Source: a virus
IMG/VR virus record: IMGVR_UViG_3300030343_000012
Strand: one strand, 5' to 3'
Length of the DNA stretch: 64,000 bases
Part shown: in pieces, positions 1-53,755 of the stretch
Numbering within the stretch: position 1 is the first letter of the stretch
Layout: the number at the start of each line of letters is the position of its first letter
The notes under the pieces: model-generated
The model's database searches: none
What the model was told of the DNA's origin: nothing
What the model saw: only the letters and a program-made list of their open reading frames with translations
Position numbers and translations under genes: made by a program

Positions 1-142
1 TTAATTCATTTGCATAATCCAATTCTAATGTAGGATCTTCTTCACTCTCAATCACCTCTTTTATTGAAGCATCACAAGCAACAGGATACTTAGCAATAAC
101 TAGCCACCAATTTCCATTAAGAAATTCTTCTTTAGATATCAT
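1..142 (-). CDS. small hypothetical protein (~47 aa; MISKEEFLNGNWW...)
   Basis: Minus-strand ATG at 140-142 overlaps the sigma-factor stop (TAATG) and the stop codon sits at 1-3. Below the ORF-track size cutoff. Confidence 0.3.
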   Translation of the reverse strand, partial: MISKEEFLNGNWWLVIAKYPVACDASIKEVIESEEDPTLELDYANEL

Positions 143-987
143 TATATTAATTTAGATAATTGTAAATTGCATCTCTTTCTTATTCTATCTAAAGCCTTTT
201 CCTTTATCTGTCTAACTCTTTCAACACCGATACCAAACATGTCTCCTACTTCTTGTTTAGACATAGGATTCATTCCTATACCAAATAGCATAATGATAAT
301 ATCATGTTCTCTAACAGGAAGTACATCTAGACATTTACATATTTCTTTATTAATGAAACTCTTATTAACTTGTTCATCAAGAGGTAGTTCTCCATCCGGA
401 ATCACATCACACACTTGACTATTTTCTTCATCCCCGCCAATAAAATCATCAACACTGACTAATCTGTTAGAAAATTGTGCTAAATAATCTATTTGCTTTT
501 CAGGAATATTAGTTAAAGTGTGTAATTCATTTGTGGTTGGATTTCTACCATTCTTTTTGATAAACTCATTAGTAGCTCTTAATATTTGAATTACTTTTAA
601 GTGTTGAGTTACCGGTAATCTAATCTCACGACCATACCAATATATGGTAGTATAAATACATTGTTTTATCCACCAAGCAGAATAATTAAGAAATTTAACA
701 CCTCTAGTTGGGTCAAACTTATTTACAGATTTACATAAGCCTTCCAATCCTGAAGATATTAAATCCATAAGAGGAATACCTCTATTTTGAAACTGCTTAG
801 CTATAGTTACTACAAATCTTAAATTAGAAGTAATTACTTTTTCTCTTGCCTTTTCATCTCCATTTTGAGCTTTAATGATTAATTCATTTATTTCTTCATT
901 ATCTAATATTTTATATTTAGATATATCTCGAAAATAACTCTGAAGTAGAGAGTCAGACTTGTCAGAAAAAATAACTCTTTTATTCAT
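142..987 (-). CDS. sigma-70 family RNA polymerase sigma factor
   Basis: Region 2-like DLISSGLEGLCKSVNKFDPTRGVKFLNYSAWWIKQ and region 4 HTH-like SKQEVGDMFGIGVERVRQIKEKALDRI are present, with a sigma-70-like domain order. Confidence 0.85.
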   Translation of the reverse strand: MNKRVIFSDKSDSLLQSYFRDISKYKILDNEEINELIIKAQNGDEKAREKVITSNLRFVVTIAKQFQNRGIPLMDLISSGLEGLCKSVNKFDPTRGVKFLNYSAWWIKQCIYTTIYWYGREIRLPVTQHLKVIQILRATNEFIKKNGRNPTTNELHTLTNIPEKQIDYLAQFSNRLVSVDDFIGGDEENSQVCDVIPDGELPLDEQVNKSFINKEICKCLDVLPVREHDIIIMLFGIGMNPMSKQEVGDMFGIGVERVRQIKEKALDRIRKRCNLQLSKLI

Positions 988-3858: not shown

Positions 3859-4165
3859 TATTAATTAATTCTTGAGAGAACTTAACATTATCTAATGAAA
3901 TAATCTCAGATACCCAAGGACACTTATCTAAGATTGCCAATCTAATTGCCTCTTTAACCTTAGTCACCATCTGTGCTTCAGTTAAATTAGCATATTTACT
4001 TTTATCTACTTTGATACACCAAGGTAGGGCTGATTCAAACCCTCCTTGATGTATTTTTATAGTAGCATCGAAATTAATAGCATATTCCCTTAGTTTAGAA
4101 ACATACTTAACTTTTGGTTTCCTTTCGATAACTACTGGTGGAACAACTGCTTTCTTTTTAGGCAT
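3830..4165 (-). CDS. hypothetical protein
   Basis: ORF in the array. Confidence 0.5.
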   Translation of the reverse strand: MPKKKAVVPPVVIERKPKVKYVSKLREYAINFDATIKIHQGGFESALPWCIKVDKSKYANLTEAQMVTKVKEAIRLAILDKCPWVSEIISLDNVKFSQELINNEANQEQKL

Positions 4166-4482
4166 TATGCAAATTCATCATCCGAAGCAACAGATTTGAA
4201 ATATTCACACAGAAAGTTGGCATATACTTGTGATTGTGCTTCACTATAGCTATTATCGAAATAGAATTGAAAACAATGGAGAAGTTCATGCCAAAATGTA
4301 TTGGTTATTTGATCTTCTGTCAACTTCACCACAGTTTTATCCTCTAATTCTATAGTCTTAGCTATAGTTATAGTATTGGTAGCATCGCACCAATTTCCAT
4401 AATTATTATTATCTGTTTTTTCTACTAATTCTACTTTAATAGTATTTCCAGCACACTTAAACTCACTTGGCAATTGCATCAA
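4165..4482 (-). CDS. hypothetical protein with HEXXH motif (possible small metallopeptidase)
   Basis: WHELLHCFQF contains HExxH. Confidence 0.45.
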   Translation of the reverse strand: MMQLPSEFKCAGNTIKVELVEKTDNNNYGNWCDATNTITIAKTIELEDKTVVKLTEDQITNTFWHELLHCFQFYFDNSYSEAQSQVYANFLCEYFKSVASDDEFA

Positions 4483-9872: not shown

Positions 9873-10152
9873 TTTCGTACCACTCTTTAAATTTTTCTAA
9901 GAATTTATCTTCAGTAACTAACTCCGTAATATCTTCAGCATCTATATCGCCATTAGAATAATTATAAGGAGAAGCCTCCTTAATTAATTCTTCTATATAA
10001 TTTTCAATATAATCTTGTATGCCTTCAATAATCTCGTCTATACCATCATCTTCAGTTCCTATATAGGTGCGATATACGTAAAGTAAAGCTGAGTAAAGGG
10101 CATCTTCTTCAACAAACACTTGTCGAATTTCACGCCATGTTAAATCTACCAT
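9865..10152 (-). CDS. hypothetical acidic protein
   Basis: ORF in the array. Confidence 0.5.
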   Translation of the reverse strand: MVDLTWREIRQVFVEEDALYSALLYVYRTYIGTEDDGIDEIIEGIQDYIENYIEELIKEASPYNYSNGDIDAEDITELVTEDKFLEKFKEWYENE

Positions 10153-10478
10153 TCTTCGAGTTTTAATTCTTTTAAATACTTAGTGTAGTAATCTAATAAT
10201 TTATCCTTAGCCACTTCTTCTATTTGTCTAGAGAGATCATTTTGAGACACATTATCTATAACATCTTGTTCTACATCAAAATTTTGCACAAAAGCATCAT
10301 ACCACTCATCTGGTTCACAAAAAATGTCATCTACTATATCTCTAGCAGTAACAGCCTTTTCATAAACGGTTTTGATATAATCACCATCTATATAGTTTTT
10401 AAACCATTCTATTATAGATTCTACATTATAACTATATTCACTAGCTATACTTATACTCTTTTGATATACAAAATACAT
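10146..10478 (-). CDS. hypothetical protein
   Basis: ORF in the array. Confidence 0.5.
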   Translation of the reverse strand: MYFVYQKSISIASEYSYNVESIIEWFKNYIDGDYIKTVYEKAVTARDIVDDIFCEPDEWYDAFVQNFDVEQDVIDNVSQNDLSRQIEEVAKDKLLDYYTKYLKELKLEEW

Positions 10479-10479
10479 A

Positions 10480-10794
10480 TTAATATGGTTTAAATTGCTG
10501 TTTTACTAACTTACCTTCATTATATTCAAGAGTTCGTTCACCTTCTTCTGAATTATCAGGCTCATCTCCTTCATAATAATATTTACCATCTTTGAAAAAT
10601 ACTTCATCTTCTACGATAGTACAATTATAAGGAAGCCAATCTGCATCCCAATTTTCTTCAAAAGGTACGTAAACATCATACATTGATACAGCTTCTTTAG
10701 TGGTATAATAAACATCATCAAACCATCCAAAAGCTCTTAAATTACAAGAAATGTCAGTAATAGCACTGCCATCAAATTTTCCGTATAATTTCAT
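10480..10794 (-). CDS. hypothetical protein
   Basis: ORF in the array. Confidence 0.5.
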   Translation of the reverse strand: MKLYGKFDGSAITDISCNLRAFGWFDDVYYTTKEAVSMYDVYVPFEENWDADWLPYNCTIVEDEVFFKDGKYYYEGDEPDNSEEGERTLEYNEGKLVKQQFKPY

Positions 10795-36588: not shown

Positions 36589-36693
36589 AAATAGCTCACC
36601 TAAATTAATAGATGAGCTATATACTACAAGTAGGTTGACTTTGTAATAGGATCTTATTCTCTACCATTACTAGTTCTCTACTTTATTAATTAG

Positions 36694-36777
36694 TTGTCTA
36701 GGAGAGATTCGAACTCCCGAAGCTAAATAGCAGCTGATTTACAGTCAGCCGTGTTTGACCACTTCACATACTAGACA
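36694..36777 (-). tRNA. tRNA-Tyr (anticodon GTA), class II with a long variable arm
   Basis: Folded by hand: acceptor TGTCTAG/CTAGACA, anticodon stem GCTGA/TCAGC with loop CTGTAAA, variable hairpin GCTA-TT-TAGC and T-arm GGGAG-TTCGAAT-CTCTC. Confidence 0.7.
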
Positions 36778-36795
36778 ATAAATTTTTTTATAAGT

Positions 36796-36864
36796 TGCGG
36801 ATGTTCGATTCGAACGACTACTCTAGGTTATGAGCCTAGTATGTTACCATTACACCACATCCGC
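36796..36864 (-). tRNA. tRNA-Met-like (anticodon CAT; could be initiator, elongator or Ile-lysidine type) with a shortened T-stem
   Basis: Acceptor GCGGATG/CATCCGC, D-stem GTGT/ACAT and anticodon stem CTAGG/CCTAG with loop CTCATAA. The T-loop TTCGAAT is flanked by only a 3-bp stem, giving 69 nt in total. Confidence 0.45.
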
Positions 36865-37043
36865 GATATATTGTTTTAAAGAATTTTCGGCGGAGCAAAG
36901 TCTTTAAGTACCATCTATCGATGACTTTTTATAAGGTTCTCTTAACCTTCGACATGACTATATTATGAGTAACGTTACCTCTCTTTTCAATGCCCCTTGA
37001 GTTAAAATACTTCTTTGGTACATGCTCCATATTAAATATAAAG

Positions 37044-37115
37044 AGCTTCAAGTAGGATTTGAACCCACGACCTGCACTTTACAAGAGTGCTGCACTACCA
37101 CTGTGCTATTGAAGC
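37044..37115 (-). tRNA. tRNA-Thr (anticodon TGT)
   Basis: Acceptor GCTTCAA/TTGAAGC, D-stem GCAC/GTGC, anticodon stem GCACT/AGTGC with loop CTTGTAA, and T-arm GTGGG-TTCAAAT-CCTAC. Confidence 0.8.
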
Positions 37116-37260
37116 TAAAATAAAGACGAATATGGCATTAGACGGGTGAACTATCATGACCATATTCTAATAATACATTGAGCTATCAGGCATACTCGTG
37201 GATCACCACCGCTACCTCTAACAACCGCCTAGTTAAATGCTAGGTCCTCTCCATTATTTG

Positions 37261-37333
37261 TGGACCGTGTCGGACTTGAACCGCAATGATTGCTTGCAAA
37301 GCAATAGTGTTAGCCAGTTACACTACACAGCCC
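37261..37333 (-). tRNA. tRNA-Ala (anticodon TGC) with G3:U70 pair and a shortened T-stem
   Basis: Acceptor GGGCTGT/ACGGTCC includes a G3-T70 wobble, the Ala identity element. D-stem GTGT/ACAC, anticodon stem ATTGC/GCAAT with loop TTTGCAA. T-loop TTCAAGT has a 3-bp stem and there is one extra nucleotide in the 8-9 linker. Confidence 0.5.
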
Positions 37334-37349
37334 ATTTCTAGTATTTTTG

Positions 37350-37426
37350 CGGAATATAAGGGACTCGAACCCTTAGTTTTACTAGAGTGACAGTCTAGTT
37401 CCCTTACCAACAGGGCTTAATACTCC
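37350..37426 (-). tRNA. tRNA-Asp (anticodon GTC)
   Basis: Acceptor GGAGTAT/ATATTCC (one G-U), anticodon stem CTAGA/TCTAG with loop CTGTCAC, and T-arm AAGGG-TTCGAGT-CCCTT. Confidence 0.65.
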
Positions 37427-37717
37427 AGGCGCCTCTTGTGTACACATTTCTTTTCGAGAAGGTAATGAACCTTAGAAATAAGAGGCATATATTTAAATTT
37501 ACTCTTCCAACATCAGTAAGTACCCATTTGGCACTTACTAGTAGAAATCTAATTAGATTACTGTAAAAGGCAATACTCGATAATCTCTAACATCATACCA
37601 AGCTGCTACAGTTTTCATTCCTTTCCACCATGATTTGATAATTCTTTTCATACAGTTTAAAATTTAATTGTTAATTAAATAATCTAATTGTATAGAAGGA
37701 AGAAGAAGTAAACATCG

Positions 37718-37789
37718 TGCAGAAAACCGGATTCGAACCGACAAATCCTGCTTGGAAGGCAGGCATGTTACCATTAACACCATTTCTGC
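37718..37789 (-). tRNA. tRNA-Gly (anticodon TCC)
   Basis: Acceptor GCAGAAA/TTTCTGC, D-stem GTGT/ACAT, anticodon stem CCTGC/GCAGG with loop CTTCCAA, and T-arm GTCGG-TTCGAAT-CCGGT. Confidence 0.75.
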
Positions 37790-38472: not shown

Positions 38473-38626
38473 ATATAGTATTTATTAGAGGGCATAATAC
38501 TATAAATAAAGTTAGCAAATTTATTTCTACTTTCTTAAGGTCCATGCGATAACTAATGTAGAAGCAACTTGCAAGATATATTACTATGCAAATAAGTCCT
38601 ATAATAAGTAACTCTCCAAAACTCAT
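38405..38626 (-). CDS. small membrane protein (2 TM)
   Basis: Hydrophobic 73-aa ORF whose start overlaps the PurA-like stop. Confidence 0.4.
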   Translation of the reverse strand: MSFGELLIIGLICIVIYLASCFYISYRMDLKKVEINLLTLFIVLCPLINTICALYFVHKNSDYKKSIEKLFND

Positions 38627-39807
38627 AATTCTTTAATATCAGAATCTTCAGACTTTCCTAGATATATATCATTTATAATACAATTACTTGTACGTAATTG
38701 TTCTATAAAACGTATTATACCGATAATTCTTGGAGATTTATCTTGATAATCACATATAGTAGGAATGTACTTAGTCTTAAGGCAATCCCAATGAGTTATG
38801 ACAATGTTAAACTTACAATGATATGTCTCACTATAATTATCTAAACAATGTCTTTCTACAGCTCTTTTAAACAAAGGATAGTCAAAAGGACCTGTTTTAA
38901 ACTCTCCTTGTGGTCCATCGTTAGTATTTGATGGTTCTTCTAGAGTAAAATACATTCCTAAGTCCATAGAATAAGGATTGTATCCATTTCCATGTCTAGT
39001 TAAATATGGACGCATAACTAAGTATACTTCTGCATTTTCTAGACACTTCTCTGGGATTCCATTTAATCCTACTTTACTAGGAGTACAGTGAGGCATAAAT
39101 CCTCTTTCCATATCTAGAAGAAGACCTTGTGAACCCTCCCAAATAACAGTATCAACCTCATCAGGATAATAAGTTCCGATTATAAAAGTCTCAGGATGTT
39201 CTTTAATAAAGGTACAAGCCTCTTTAAAAAGATCATCTAGTTTAGTGTCCCGTTCTAGATTATGATAATCCCTTACAGTCTGTAAAGCTACATCTGCATA
39301 TTCATCTGTATAAGGACACATACGAGCACTATAAGTTACATTATCTTTGTTTCTTTTAAAACAAGCATGTATACCTTTACCACAAGTTCCATTATACTTC
39401 ACTCGTCCATCCATAGAGTCAGCTAATACATCATAAGGTGTAATAACTCTACAGTTAGGATTTATATATAACTTAGGAACTTCAATACCCTCACTAACTA
39501 AGACTTTATATTCATTATAAATACATATTGGGTCAATGAATACTTCCTTATATAAGCAAGTTGGTACTCCTAGCAAAACACCGCTTCCCCAAGAAGAACA
39601 TACGTGTGATTTACCTTTATAAACCACACGATGACCGGCTTGTGGACCTCCACTAAATCTGATGACAACAGGTTTGTAACTATTCATACATAGCCATTGT
39701 ACTACATTACCCTTACCCTCATCACCAAATAGAGATCCAAGTACTATTTGATTACGAATTTGTTTGCTGTCCATAACTGTTAGAAACAATACGAGCAATA
39801 GATTCAC
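38623..39807 (-). CDS. adenylosuccinate synthetase homologue (PurA/PurZ-like); start probably MDSKQIRN at ~39774
   Basis: N-terminal NQIVLGSLFGDEGKGNVV matches the PurA P-loop NVVVLGTQWGDEGKGK. WEGSQGLLLDMERGFMP matches PurA EGAQGTLLDIDHGTYP. Length ~380 aa. Confidence 0.7.
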   Translation of the reverse strand: MNLLLVLFLTVMDSKQIRNQIVLGSLFGDEGKGNVVQWLCMNSYKPVVIRFSGGPQAGHRVVYKGKSHVCSSWGSGVLLGVPTCLYKEVFIDPICIYNEYKVLVSEGIEVPKLYINPNCRVITPYDVLADSMDGRVKYNGTCGKGIHACFKRNKDNVTYSARMCPYTDEYADVALQTVRDYHNLERDTKLDDLFKEACTFIKEHPETFIIGTYYPDEVDTVIWEGSQGLLLDMERGFMPHCTPSKVGLNGIPEKCLENAEVYLVMRPYLTRHGNGYNPYSMDLGMYFTLEEPSNTNDGPQGEFKTGPFDYPLFKRAVERHCLDNYSETYHCKFNIVITHWDCLKTKYIPTICDYQDKSPRIIGIIRFIEQLRTSNCIINDIYLGKSEDSDIKEL

Positions 39808-42625: not shown

Positions 42626-45085
42626 TTACTTGAATAACTTTTTAGCCCAATACAGGAGTTCTCTACAAACTGGTACAATTGCAGTAAGACCTACAATCTC
42701 CAACCATGTTTCAATACTTAATGGCTCTGTTCTGAACACATCGCCACCAAATTGAACTATCAAAATTTGACCAATAAATATAACCAAACATATTCCAATA
42801 AATGCAGGATTACTTAACAAACCATTAAAGATACTTCTGTCTTGTCCAAATACTCTTGCATTAAACAAGTTCCAGAATTGTAACATAACAAAAATAGTGA
42901 AGAACTCTGTAAGGCTATATGTATTACTAATCAGCAAATATAATAATATGCCGAAATACAAAATACCTACACCAAAGATTTCATACCACATTCTCTTTGT
43001 GATAATAAATGCCTTAGGATCACGTGGCTGTTCAGACATTACTGCTTCATTAGCTGGTTCTGTAGCCAATGCTAAAGCAGCAAAAGTATCCATAATTAAG
43101 TTAACCCATAGCATTTGGATAACAGTGAATGGTAAGTCTACCCCAATAAATGGACCTACACAAGCAATACCAATAGCTACAACATTTACAGTAAGCTGGA
43201 AAAGAATAAAGTGCTGAATATTCTTATACAAGCTTCTTCCCCACTTAACTCCTAAGATAACAGAAGGGAATGAATTATCAAGAAGAATAACATCAGCTGC
43301 ATTCTTAGCAATATCAGTACCATTATTCATAGCTACACCTACTTCAGCTTGGTTAAGAGCAGCTGAATCATTAGTTCCATCACCAGTTACAGCTACTACT
43401 TCTCCCATTCTCTGGAATCTCTTAACAAGTGTCTGCTTGTCTTCAGGTTTAGTTCTGGCAAATACATCTACTTTACGTAAATTAGTATCTGTCTGAGCTT
43501 CGACTTCCTTACCAAGCATTGTGTTAGGAGTCTGAGAGATATTAGCTTGAGCAGCGATAGAAGCAGCTGTTTCAGGATTATCACCTGTCACAATCTTAAC
43601 TTTAATTCCTGCGTTTCTAGCAGCCTGAATTGCATCAGGTACATTACTTCTTACTGGGTCTTCGATAGCTACGTAGCCATCCCATATGAAGTCTGAGAGG
43701 GTATTTATATCAGAACCAATCTTGTGTGCAAAAGCAATACATCTTCTGCCTTTAGATTGTTGTTCTGCAAAATTAGGTATGTTCTCATTAGAGCAGAAAT
43801 TCATTACTATTTCTGGAGCTCCCTTAATATAAGTAACTGCTCCATCACTAGTAATCATATATTTATTCTTAGAATTAAATTCTACTCTACCTGTTATATG
43901 AGTTTTATTTCTTTTATCGGTGATGTCAACTGACTTTTGTACATATTGCAGACAAGCACCCTCTGTAGGATTTCCTACTACTTCTCCTGCAGGACTAAGA
44001 TTAGCAGTAGAATTAAGTACAATATTATTTATGACAGCATTTCTATCTGTAAAGTCCTGGAATACTACTTTCATTTTATTCTCTGTAAGAGTTCCTGTCT
44101 TATCAGTAAGAATAAGAGTTGTAGCACCGAGAGTTTCACAAGCATGCATCTTTCTAATAAGGTTATTAGCTTTAGCCATTCTCTTCATAGAATAAGCAAG
44201 AGCAAGAGTTACCGCCATAGGTAAACCTTCTGGTACTGCTACTACAATAAGAGCTACTGCAATCATTAAGAATTGTAAGCAATCATTTACAATATCAATA
44301 GTATCTTTGCCTACATATCCTTGCTCTATAAATATATAACGTATAGCAAGAGACACAATAAGGATACCTGCAGCTGTGAATGCTATCTTATTAATTAAGC
44401 TAGCTAATCCATTAAGCTGTTTATTAAGAGGTGTTTCTACATCAGTAATAGAAGATGCTTCTCTAGCAGTCTTACCTACTTCTGTTTCATCTCCTACTGC
44501 AAATACTTCACCTACACAAGTACCCTCAGCTACAATAGTGCTTTTATAAATTCTATTTGTAGGATAGGTAGCAGTCTCTGATTCAAAATTAGTTTTAGTT
44601 ACAGGATTTGTTTCTCCAGTTAAAGAAGCTTCACTTACCTTCAAATTGCTATATTCTCTAACAATAATATCGGCAGGAACTTCTTCACCAGCTTCAAGTA
44701 TTACAATATCCCCTACAACTAAGTCTTTACGAGCTACTTGAATTACTCCATTATCTCGTCTTACCTTAACTAGAGTATCATCACTACTAGTTAAAAGAAG
44801 GTCAAACTTTTTAGCTGCTGACCAGGTATTCCAAAAACCAATACCTACAGCTAAAGCAATGGCTACAATAATACCAATAGGCTCTGTAAATTCACCCTTT
44901 ACAAATCCTAAGGCAATAGATACTGCAGCTGCAATAAGTAATATTACAATAAGTGGGTCTTTAAATCCATCAAGTAACATTACATACCAAGCATCTCTCT
45001 TCGGAGGTGTCAATACATTAATGCCATGTCTAGCACGTGAATCTTCTACTTCTGTTAAGCTAAGACCGTAATTTATATCTGTCAT
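42626..45085 (-). CDS. P2-type cation-transporting P-type ATPase (Ca2+-ATPase-like)
   Basis: Phosphorylation site DKTGTLT, TM4 PEGLP (VPEGLPMAVTLALA), TGDN (VTGDNPETAA) and hinge GDGTNDSAAL. About 10 predicted TM segments, no CPC metal motif, 819 aa. Confidence 0.9.
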   Translation of the reverse strand: MTDINYGLSLTEVEDSRARHGINVLTPPKRDAWYVMLLDGFKDPLIVILLIAAAVSIALGFVKGEFTEPIGIIVAIALAVGIGFWNTWSAAKKFDLLLTSSDDTLVKVRRDNGVIQVARKDLVVGDIVILEAGEEVPADIIVREYSNLKVSEASLTGETNPVTKTNFESETATYPTNRIYKSTIVAEGTCVGEVFAVGDETEVGKTAREASSITDVETPLNKQLNGLASLINKIAFTAAGILIVSLAIRYIFIEQGYVGKDTIDIVNDCLQFLMIAVALIVVAVPEGLPMAVTLALAYSMKRMAKANNLIRKMHACETLGATTLILTDKTGTLTENKMKVVFQDFTDRNAVINNIVLNSTANLSPAGEVVGNPTEGACLQYVQKSVDITDKRNKTHITGRVEFNSKNKYMITSDGAVTYIKGAPEIVMNFCSNENIPNFAEQQSKGRRCIAFAHKIGSDINTLSDFIWDGYVAIEDPVRSNVPDAIQAARNAGIKVKIVTGDNPETAASIAAQANISQTPNTMLGKEVEAQTDTNLRKVDVFARTKPEDKQTLVKRFQRMGEVVAVTGDGTNDSAALNQAEVGVAMNNGTDIAKNAADVILLDNSFPSVILGVKWGRSLYKNIQHFILFQLTVNVVAIGIACVGPFIGVDLPFTVIQMLWVNLIMDTFAALALATEPANEAVMSEQPRDPKAFIITKRMWYEIFGVGILYFGILLYLLISNTYSLTEFFTIFVMLQFWNLFNARVFGQDRSIFNGLLSNPAFIGICLVIFIGQILIVQFGGDVFRTEPLSIETWLEIVGLTAIVPVCRELLYWAKKLFK

Positions 45086-51873: not shown

Positions 51874-52165
51874 TTACAATAGCTTTATTATGATAATTAA
51901 TATTATCTAATTGTCTTTTAATAATTTTAGCATTAGCACTATTTTTCAATCCCAAATCAACCAGCTTATTATACTCACTGCTTAAATTATCTTCATCTAA
52001 TGGAACTAATGAAGTATTCTTAGCAGCTCCAATTACTTCTATAGCTAAATTAGCTAAAGATTCTTTAATAGTTGGTTCTACTACAGGTTTTGTAGGAACT
52101 TTTACAACTACGGGATTTTCCTCCTCTTTTGAATTTAGCTCAAATAAATTACTTAATATACCCAT
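51833..52165 (-). CDS. hypothetical protein
   Basis: ORF in the array. Confidence 0.45.
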   Translation of the reverse strand: MGILSNLFELNSKEEENPVVVKVPTKPVVEPTIKESLANLAIEVIGAAKNTSLVPLDEDNLSSEYNKLVDLGLKNSANAKIIKRQLDNINYHNKAIVNAKKITGIYKSDK

Positions 52166-52174
52166 TATTTAAAA

Positions 52175-52408
52175 TTATTTAATTGTTTCACCTACTCTGT
52201 AATCATCCCCATCGCACACACGAATAGTTTTAATCTCATATCGATTAGTTTTCTTATTATACATTCGTATTTTGAAAGCATAATACTCTAAGCATATTGT
52301 TTTTGATATTATTACCCCTCCCTTATAATTCAATATAGAATCCTTACATTGAATTGAAGGACCACACGATACCAATAAAGATAAAATTACTAATACTATT
52401 ACTTTCAT
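52175..52408 (-). CDS. small lipoprotein
   Basis: Lipobox LLVSCG after an N-terminal hydrophobic signal. Confidence 0.5.
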   Translation of the reverse strand: MKVIVLVILSLLVSCGPSIQCKDSILNYKGGVIISKTICLEYYAFKIRMYNKKTNRYEIKTIRVCDGDDYRVGETIK

Positions 52409-52492
52409 AATAATTTAAATACAAAAATCCCTGAACTATATAGGTAGCCCAGGGATTAAAATAACGTTAAATAATAAAAACAGTTCTATGAA

Positions 52493-52620
52493 CCGGTGGA
52501 GCATTGGAGAGTCGAACTCCAGTCACTCCGATTTGCATCAAAACATTCTTACAGCATAGGTTTTAAAGACTATCCTTGTCTGCTAGGGTTGACAAGATTA
52601 ACATATTGTCAACTTCCACC
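52493..52620 (-). ncRNA. tRNA-like structured element: T-arm TGGAG-TTCGACT-CTCCA plus an acceptor-like helix, 128 nt end to end, not a canonical cloverleaf
   Basis: Minus-strand sequence GGTGGAAGTTGACAA...GGAGTGACTGGAGTTCGACTCTCCAATGCTCCACC. GGTGGA pairs with TCCACC at the ends. An internal 7-bp hairpin TTGACAA/TTGTCAA is present. A local minihelix GGAGTGA/ATGCTCC plus T-arm is also possible. It sits in a ~740-bp region with no convincing CDS. Confidence 0.3.
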
Positions 52621-52992
52621 ACTCTGTTCCTAAAGTATACAGAGAACTTACAAAAGAAATGGAAAATAGTGCACCTTTCTGTTCCTAAGCAAGTGCTGCT
52701 CGGCTTCTCAGGCTGCGATAGCGTAAGAAGCGGAAGTGTTATTTACTTCGCCAATTAATTTTTTACTTGTCTATCCAAGTTGTCTTGCTGTGTTCCTTAT
52801 CTCCTCGAAGTTCAAAACCACGAATGCCCCATTTAAAAGAGTCCTAATAGAACTCTTTAATATCTTCTGATTCTTCTACTATATGGAGAACCCATATCAT
52901 ACCAATCATCTGGATCTATTCTATCTTCGTCACCCATAATCTAAAAATTAATTAATGTTAAAAACTATATGTTAATCTGTTTCTTTTCGGAA

Positions 52993-53135
52993 TCATCTTC
53001 TAAATAATATAATTCTGTTTATTATACGGAAAGCCCTTTTAACTGCAGGTATTTTGGAATCATCTGGATGTAAATGATAATTCCTAATAACTACATTAGC
53101 CTCATGTAGTTTCTTGATTTCTCTTAAACTATACA
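52993..53135 (-). CDS. small hypothetical protein (~47 aa, MYSLREIKKLHEANVV...)
   Basis: Small minus-strand ORF at the edge of the non-coding region; below the cutoff. Confidence 0.25.
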
Positions 53136-53149
53136 TAAATATGACTTTA

Positions 53150-53755
53150 TTATTCTTTATTAATCATACATTGTCTTAATATAGTTTCATTAATTATATT
53201 ATCATTTTCTCTTGCGAGTTTATCTAACAACTCTAGATTAAATTCTTCCTTTTGAAACTTAAATTGAATCCAATTAGGTTCAAATTCTCTGTAATCTAGA
53301 TGAGACAAAGGTTTATCTGTATTTAATACATATTTAACTAATCTAGTTAAACGTTCTCCAGCTAGTTTAGATACTACAAAACCAGATAAATCATAACCTA
53401 TACCTCTACTTCTCCAATATTCACCTATTTCAGGCTTAGAGTCTGGAGCAACATAGAACATTTTATAATAGTCTGAAGAACCTAAAGTTACATAAGTACC
53501 TAACTGACCACTACATATAGATAATCCTACATAGGAATATAAAGTATCATTATGATCTAGTGTAAGAAATACTGGGACTTTATCAGGATCCAAATTATTA
53601 ATCTCACAATGATGCAGTGCAGTATGCACATACTCAAGTAATTTAGATACTGATATAGTACTTAGTTTGGTATCTTCTTCACCTTTGTTCTCTTTAATGG
53701 CAGCATCAGAACATCTAGTGTGCCAATTTTTCCATTTATCTCCTTCTAAATACAT
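53150..53755 (-). CDS. hypothetical protein
   Basis: ORF in the array. Confidence 0.5.
   Translation of the reverse strand: MYLEGDKWKNWHTRCSDAAIKENKGEEDTKLSTISVSKLLEYVHTALHHCEINNLDPDKVPVFLTLDHNDTLYSYVGLSICSGQLGTYVTLGSSDYYKMFYVAPDSKPEIGEYWRSRGIGYDLSGFVVSKLAGERLTRLVKYVLNTDKPLSHLDYREFEPNWIQFKFQKEEFNLELLDKLARENDNIINETILRQCMINKE

Follow-up and report, generated by a model that had tools for sequence, protein, structure and literature searches.

What occupies an apparently empty stretch of a large phage genome? Positions 52409 to 53149 of the 64-kb window analyzed here (the whole 64,000-nucleotide stretch of DNA taken from IMG/VR record IMGVR_UViG_3300030343_000012; the parent genome, of approximately 190 kb, is that of a gut phage) had been described in an initial annotation as a gene-free island holding a tRNA-like structured RNA. 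ARAGORN and the full set of Rfam families were run against the window. ARAGORN called a one-piece transfer-messenger RNA (tmRNA) gene, ssrA, of 336 nt on the minus strand at 52495-52830, with the predicted tag GEVNNTSASYAIAA*. Rfam family RF00023 matched the same strand at 52494-52830 with a score of 51.0 bits (E=3.7e-17), and all of model positions 1 to 374 were covered. The two methods are independent, and the ends that they assign differ by no more than 1 nt. Read on the minus strand, the gene runs from GGGGCAUUCG at its 5' end to AAUGCUCCACC at its 3' end. Judged from its sequence, the island very probably holds a functional phage-borne ssrA gene encoding a one-piece tmRNA. The tRNA-like character noted initially is borne out by these calls, and the stretch is empty only in part: no open reading frame (ORF) exceeds 63 codons, but the tmRNA gene fills 52495-52830, a 26-amino-acid (aa) ORF is conserved, and a 47-aa ORF is called as a gene. 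Among the families for which an Rfam scan had been proposed (tRNA, tmRNA, and group I intron), tmRNA was found and the other two were not found at this locus of the window.

A blastn search against 50,697 deposited phage records returned a single match, MT835492, an unannotated 121.6-kb contig from human feces, at 83% identity. Over all comparisons with deposited phage genomes, the matches were limited to two fecal contigs, both unannotated, and hence supplied no annotation. Two exact-pattern scans of IMG/VR identified 32 further loci on contigs of 94 to 225 kb, all with a homolog at 80 to 95% identity. A scan with the neighboring AAA ATPase added more loci, L057 and L059 among them, and the homolog is present in at least 35 related viral loci (L001 to L033 plus L057 and L059). 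The tmRNA of L057 is divergent and 384 nt long, and the ATPase there is 55% identical; the tmRNA is kept among contigs whose neighboring ATPase has diverged to approximately 50% identity.

Covariation was assessed in a set of 26 distinct sequences, in which 24 base pairs were counted in the acceptor stem, helix 2a (H2a), helix 2b (H2b), and the T stem. MAFFT misregistered the 5' ends of the three types of tRNA-like domain; the first 20 nt were reregistered by hand, and the pairs were counted by script. All 24 pairs were canonical in every one of the 26 sequences, and double-sided changes were found at 13 of them. When the 3' partner was slid by 1 to 3 columns as a control, pairing was 33 to 50% with 0 to 2 double-sided pairs, and in 1,000 column shuffles, pairing averaged 81% with a maximum of 85%. 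The comparison with related phages proposed in the initial annotation thus revealed a conserved structure.

The 5' strand of the acceptor stem, GGGGCAU (52824-52830, minus strand), pairs with AUGCUCC at 52498-52504. All seven pairs form in 26 of 26 sequences, with compensatory changes at pairs 5 to 7 that give three versions of the stem, and the G3:U70 wobble, which is the alanine identity pair, is invariant. As read from the sequence, the 3' strand is followed by a discriminator A and CC (52495-52504 in all, minus strand). The base after ACC is G, and CCA is therefore incompletely encoded, so that the final A must be added posttranscriptionally. The six tRNA genes of the window likewise lack an encoded CCA, and the ACC-G end of the tmRNA is in keeping with them. 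The T-arm, UGGAG-UUCGACU-CUCCA, is present as first described and lies on the minus strand at 52505-52521; it is paired in all 26 sequences, and four of its five pairs show compensatory changes. The 5' strand of H2a, ACUUCGA (52805-52811, minus strand), pairs with UCGGAGU at 52525-52531 in all 26 sequences; it occurs in four sequence versions, all complementary, with compensatory changes at five of seven pairs. H2a, H2b, and helix 2c constitute a long helix 2 that is 100% paired. The RNA had been judged too short for a classic tmRNA, yet its 336 nt are of canonical length and its 5' end lies approximately 210 nt beyond the one first proposed. The misjudgment arose because the 3' end had been matched with the wrong 5' partner.

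The coding part of the tmRNA according to ARAGORN comprises its positions 79 to 123 (52708-52752, minus strand), with the frame GGC GAA GUA AAU AAC ACU UCC GCU UCU UAC GCU AUC GCA GCC UGA. This frame would encode a 14-residue tag with no start codon and with GGC as the resume codon. U and A stand at positions -5 and -4 from the resume codon, which we take to match the frame-setting U85/A86 motif of Escherichia coli. The tags of relatives are GEVNNTS[AV]SYAIAA, ARVINMTPVSYAIAA, ARVINMTPAYQAAA, and ARVINMTPATAVAIAA, and that of L057 is GRVNNSSVSYAVAA. Within a tag type, the differences UCC/UCU, AUC/AUU, AGA/AGG, GCU/GCC, and UGA/UAA are synonymous or stop to stop, and the sole nonsynonymous difference is one Ala/Val change. 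A natural G-initial tag is found in Bacteroides (GETNYALAA; bioRxiv 10.1101/2025.03.18.644028), and the AIAA ending occurs in the C. difficile tag ADDNFAIAA and also in X. campestris (PMC12493166, Table 1).

The remaining elements were located on the same strand. Helix 5, GCUUCU...AGAAGC (52703-52731), encloses the end of the tag and its stop codon and covaries among relatives (GCUUCU/AGAAGC, GUUUCU/AGAAAC, and GCUUAU/AUAAGU). At the position of pseudoknot 1 (PK1) there is a hairpin, ACUUG-GAUAGA-CAAGU (52765-52780), which was aligned to the PK1 stem annotated by Rfam and which also covaries, from ACUUG/CAAGU to GUUG/CAAC in relatives. By inspection, PK2 (52671-52700) was drawn as H type, its two stems being AGCA/UGCU and GCAC/GUGC; it is invariant among close relatives, and in the divergent L057, two compensatory changes turn stem 1 into GGUA/UACC. 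PK3 (52612-52644), likewise drawn by inspection as H type, has stems CUCUGU/ACAGAG and ACUU/AAGU. What the initial annotation described as the hairpin TTGACAA/TTGTCAA is the first hairpin in the PK4 region (GUUGACAA-loop-UUGUCAAC, 52588-52613); it is real and shows compensatory changes but has 8 bp rather than 7. Seven of its eight pairs form in all 26 sequences. The remaining pair, next to the loop, can be aligned in just 8 of them, since a 2-nt deletion is found at that point in 18 relatives. As compensatory changes, L002 has G-C in place of A-U, and L057 has A-U in place of G-C. A pseudoknot partner for this hairpin was sought by inspection, and none was found. Sequence comparison indicates that the window RNA carries the sequence hallmarks of tmRNA, conserved with compensatory changes, and tag codons that are under coding constraint.

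PK2 and PK3 have in common a direct repeat of 17 nt, UUAGGAACAGA..GGUG in the RNA, located at 52617-52633 and 52672-52688. The shared repeat suggests that the two elements arose by duplication.

Several other classes of element were tried at this locus. A two-piece (permuted) tmRNA was rejected, since RF04321 scored 19.9 bits against a threshold of 47 and the acceptor strands are in standard order. The tRNA with an insertion that the initial annotation had entertained was not recovered: neither ARAGORN nor Rfam (RF00005) called a tRNA, with or without an insertion or intron, at 52409-53149, and the 319 nt between the acceptor strands of the window, which include the tag frame, weigh against one. 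The minimal tmRNA-like RNA of the same annotation gives way to a full-length one-piece tmRNA in both ARAGORN and RF00023. No match to the group I intron family (RF00028) was found in the window allele even at E<=1, and a permissive Rfam rescan of 52100-53300 (E<=1) returned no family besides tmRNA and a subthreshold echo of permuted tmRNA. A hidden coding sequence under an alternative genetic code, a possibility raised at the outset, was not found either: with TGA or TAG read through, the longest open stretch is at most 63 codons in any frame. The ORFs of the window stop at TAA in 64 cases, at TGA in 20, and at TAG in 13.

A number of observations weigh against a functional tmRNA gene. The window sequence clears the RF00023 gathering score of 47 bits by only 4 bits (scores of relatives reach 69.3 bits). 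Its single-sequence minimum-free-energy fold, which cannot represent pseudoknots, is only mildly better than those of shuffled sequences (z = -2.0). A second stem for PK1 was sought by inspection, and none could be drawn; PK3 never varies and hence carries no covariation information, so that its pseudoknot is putative. None of the window's 97 ORFs matched SmpB, which leaves the host or the remaining ~125 kb of the genome as the source of the required partner protein. A 17-mer taken from PK3, an insensitive probe because the match must be exact, retrieved no related bacterial ssrA from 185,579 Genome Taxonomy Database (GTDB) species genomes; its three matches were all due to chance, and none had tmRNA homology. 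Finally, the advantage to the phage is one that we infer entirely. With these points taken into account, the feature is a genuine, and probably functional, tmRNA gene.

The most likely function is that the RNA, charged by host alanyl-tRNA synthetase (AlaRS) and working with host SmpB, rescues stalled ribosomes during infection. The gene would be transcribed in the direction of all its neighbors. An RNase P-type cleavage downstream of the leader hairpin would generate the 5' end of the RNA, the 3' end would also be trimmed, and CCA would be completed by a host enzyme. Host AlaRS would then charge the RNA with alanine via G3:U70, and the charged RNA would bind host SmpB and EF-Tu and enter ribosomes stalled on broken or stop-less mRNAs. 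Translation would switch to the GGC resume codon, the tag GEVNNTSASYAIAA would be added, the ribosome would be freed, and the peptide would be marked for host proteases. For the phage, the benefit would be that ribosomes are kept available during mRNA breakdown in infection, beside the action of phage tRNAs and RNA ligases. The same role has been proposed for other phage tmRNAs (PMC9004378, PMC7162821).

The RNA might instead be a decoy, that is, a tmRNA mimic that sequesters SmpB, AlaRS, or EF-Tu of the host and inhibits host trans-translation. Mycobacteriophage DS6A offers a precedent in an RNA that is little more than a tRNA-like domain and is associated with strong tmRNA inhibition, perhaps through SmpB titration (PMC4131195). 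The lack of a phage smpB gene in the window would fit such a role, as would the noncanonical T-loop in the tRNA-like domain of 13 of the 34 sequences compared (window 52495-52830 and 33 relatives, L001 to L033). A pure decoy would need no tag constraint, whereas the whole mRNA-like part is kept, the tag varies synonymously with its stops preserved, and helix 5 covaries around the stop codon; we therefore consider a decoy quite improbable. About half as probable, in our judgment, is a host ssrA copy acquired by recombination and passively carried or decaying, with no function in the phage. Phages can acquire ssrA sequence, a common prophage integration site (PMC9004378), and the marginal Rfam score would suit decay. 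Such a copy would hardly be expected to persist in at least 35 contigs despite the divergence of the neighboring ATPase, with all helices compensated and tags intact, and no similar bacterial sequence appeared in the GTDB scan.

The locus would be a different kind of remnant if it were an attP site, an ssrA fragment serving a temperate phage for integration into the host tmRNA gene; in the work of Williams, ssrA is reportedly a frequent integration target. The same preference is described in PMC9004378, but attP copies are 3' fragments, whereas the window gene is complete from G1 to its ACC end. Its neighbors are small proteins of unassigned function, no integrase or recombinase family match was found among the 97 ORFs, and the attP reading is very improbable. 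We give hardly any credence to the structure first proposed, a tRNA-like minihelix of approximately 128 nt closed by GGUGGA/UCCACC, whose role would be that of an insertion-bearing tRNA or of a signal for priming or processing. The two hexamers are indeed present (52496-52501 and 52617-52622) and complementary, and their pairing is unbroken in the 26 sequences. By our estimate, a 6-mer that meets its complement within a few hundred nucleotides is unremarkable, and the helix shows no informative variation, with only one one-sided change. It would also bury the discriminator and CC end, and the overlapping 3' strand covaries instead with GGGGCAU, 336 nt away; the terminal helix is thus formed by AUGCUCC and GGGGCAU rather than by the hexamers. 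No tRNA was called by either program, and nothing in the analysis supports a priming or replication-origin role. The DS6A RNA, consisting of a tRNA-like domain only (PMC4131195), is the kind of minihelix that this proposal had in mind; unlike it, the window RNA extends to full length and includes an mRNA-like region and predicted pseudoknots.

The predicted tmRNA was then set beside known systems. It resembles bacterial one-piece tmRNA (RF00023) in its 7-bp acceptor stem with G3:U70, its UUCGANU T-loop, its long helix 2, and its length of 336 nt. Other shared features are a resume codon preceded by an A-rich stretch, a tag of 14 residues that ends in YAIAA, the placement of the stop codon within helix 5, and several pseudoknot-like elements. 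It differs in being phage encoded, in having a hairpin only at the PK1 position, in the 17-nt repeat of PK2 and PK3, in its incomplete CCA, and in its near-threshold Rfam score. Phage tmRNAs have been reported in 402 of 18,146 phage genomes (PMC9004378), in huge phages (PMC7162821), and in Bxz1-like mycobacteriophages and Bacillus phage G (PMC4131195). Like those of Bxz1-like phages, phage G, huge phages, and marine myophages such as Melnitz, the window gene is a complete ssrA in a large phage, and like known tmRNA phages, this one also carries tRNAs and genes related to translation and RNA repair (PMC4131195, PMC7162821, PMC9004378). Unlike known phage tmRNAs, it has no blastn-level similarity in the 50,697 records other than to the one unannotated fecal contig. 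It is in one piece, whereas the tmRNA of marine phages is permuted, and no attached riboswitch was detected by Rfam; some huge phages encode SmpB, in contrast to the 64-kb window.

Phage tmRNA is rare but already known, and the window gene is a further example, in a human-gut lineage; current understanding is not overturned. An apparent noncoding gap of an unannotated large gut phage becomes a defined gene, and a human-gut lineage joins the approximately 2% of phages with their own ribosome-rescue RNA (PMC9004378). The tmRNA stretch was left empty by public gene callers, and approximately 40% of the alleles of the lineage escape standard tmRNA detectors, so phage tmRNAs are probably undercounted. 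The tag and the tRNA-like domain could help to assign a host, and the natural variants within the lineage could be used to ask how a phage benefits from carrying a tmRNA.

The 34 sequences reveal a mosaic gene in which three tRNA-like-domain cassettes, four H2a versions, and at least five tag versions are variously combined; the differing combinations indicate recombination inside the gene. The domain types are A, that of the window; B, with GGGGAUG/CAUCUCC; and C, with GGGGCUA/UAGCUCC. Type C, present in 13 of the 34 sequences, all of them relatives, has the T-loop GGCAGUA in place of UUCGANU. Compensation is complete in its acceptor and T stems, G3:U70 is retained, and its D-loop is altered and lacks GG. 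The loci named as type C are L001 (3073-3407, corresponding to 4017-4351 of MT835492), L006, L007, L009 to L016, L018, L020, and L031. Type C alleles escape ARAGORN, and RF00023 reports none even at E<=1 (Rfam was tested on L001). Group I introns lie inside the tmRNA genes of L033 (9877-10743) and L005 (397-648), with Rfam scores of 85.9 and 87.3 bits, respectively. The L033 intron, of approximately 867 nt, falls between U55 and C56 of the T-loop, leaves a short 3' exon, and encloses an ORF of 209 aa that runs on the opposite strand (10044-10673). In the C. botulinum tmRNA gene, a group I intron similarly lies close to the 3' end, and the 3' exon is 24 nt long (PMC2729099 and its reference 10); unlike that gene, the window allele is intronless, and the L033 intron is distinguished by its ~867-nt length and its opposite-strand 209-aa ORF.

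It is conceivable, if unlikely, that the tmRNA of this lineage is not a static housekeeping copy but a fast-evolving, cassette-swapping locus that includes alleles with a remodeled T-loop/D-loop elbow and intron-split alleles. If so, the pattern would fit conflict over ribosome rescue, for example, with host factors that cleave or sequester phage tmRNA or with phage tags tuned to change which proteases see tagged proteins. There would also exist a class of tmRNAs with a noncanonical elbow. These unusual aspects (cassette swapping, the elbow variant, and intron-split alleles) belong to the relatives and not to this window.

More distant relatives (L069 to L071, L076, and L078), in which ATPase identity is 38 to 42%, have tRNAs and no tmRNA within 5 kb of the ATPase; the tmRNA may be confined to a subclade or may be located elsewhere in these phages. 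L078 has a group I intron at 798-1047; matches to this intron family were confined to L005, L033, and L078. Putative suppressor tRNAs were seen in relatives, with anticodon UUA in L007 (7491-7576) and CUA in L076 (1770-1840), which hints at stop-codon recoding in parts of the phage group.

The flanks of the tmRNA gene contain further features, all on the minus strand. A consensus scan found two terminator-like sites versus 0.3 expected: a hairpin with a U-run directly 3' of the tmRNA (52481-52495) and a second, stronger hairpin of 13 pairs followed by UUUUGU (52426-52457). On the 5' side, the sequence and an inverted-repeat report give a 9-bp leader hairpin, AAAGAGUUC-UAUUA-GGACUCUUU (52836-52858), which ends 5 nt ahead of the mature 5' end (G1), is nearly invariant in relatives, and shares nucleotides with the stop codon of the 26-aa ORF. 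Of 12 positions in the 5' leader (52847-52858), 11 are complementary to the 3' trailer (52478-52489); this could reflect a precursor-processing stalk or could be a by-product of two similar flanking hairpins. No Bacteroides-type promoter (TAnnTTTG) was found upstream of the tmRNA gene, and the window total of 84 compares with 89 expected. The sigma-70-type promoter matches at 52905-52878 and 52945-52918 are weak consensus matches only.

The 26-aa ORF, MGDEDRIDPDDWYDMGSPYSRRIRRY, lies directly upstream of the tmRNA (52857-52937). It has a nucleotide match in 30 related loci, most of which keep the N-terminal MG[ND]EDRIDPDDWY, and it occurs with two C-terminal versions; it is not called by public gene finders. 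Four public contigs have the 47-aa ORF (52993-53136), of unassigned function, among their called genes; it had no match in a search against PHROG.

Sizeable ORFs of the window are all on the minus strand, the G+C content is approximately 31%, and ORFs of at least 70 aa cover 84% of it. Library scans of the 97 ORFs identified NrdD, two RNA-ligase-domain proteins, a DNA ligase, and helicases, which is the gene content of a large phage, and a neighboring 201-aa protein is found with identical sequence on contigs of 175 to 190 kb. The six tRNA genes (Tyr, Met, Thr, Ala, Asp, and Gly) form a cluster at 36693-37789 on the minus strand. The other genes below were likewise noted in the window. An adenylosuccinate-synthetase homolog (38623-39807, minus strand) matches phrog_1211 (annotated as PurZ type; E=3.8e-43); this PurA/PurZ-like enzyme might be a sign of 2-aminoadenine (Z) DNA. 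A protein of the sigma-70 family, comprising regions 2, 3, and 4, is encoded at 142-987 (minus strand). Within 31076-63966 there are two TerD-domain proteins, a Tad2-like (anti-Thoeris) protein, an acyl-carrier-type PP-binding protein, an SPFH/Band 7 protein, and a crAss001_48-related protein. A P-type cation-transporting ATPase of 819 aa, with E1-E2 ATPase and Cation_ATPase_C/N domains, is encoded at 42626-45085 on the minus strand and is, in our view, an unusual gene for a phage.

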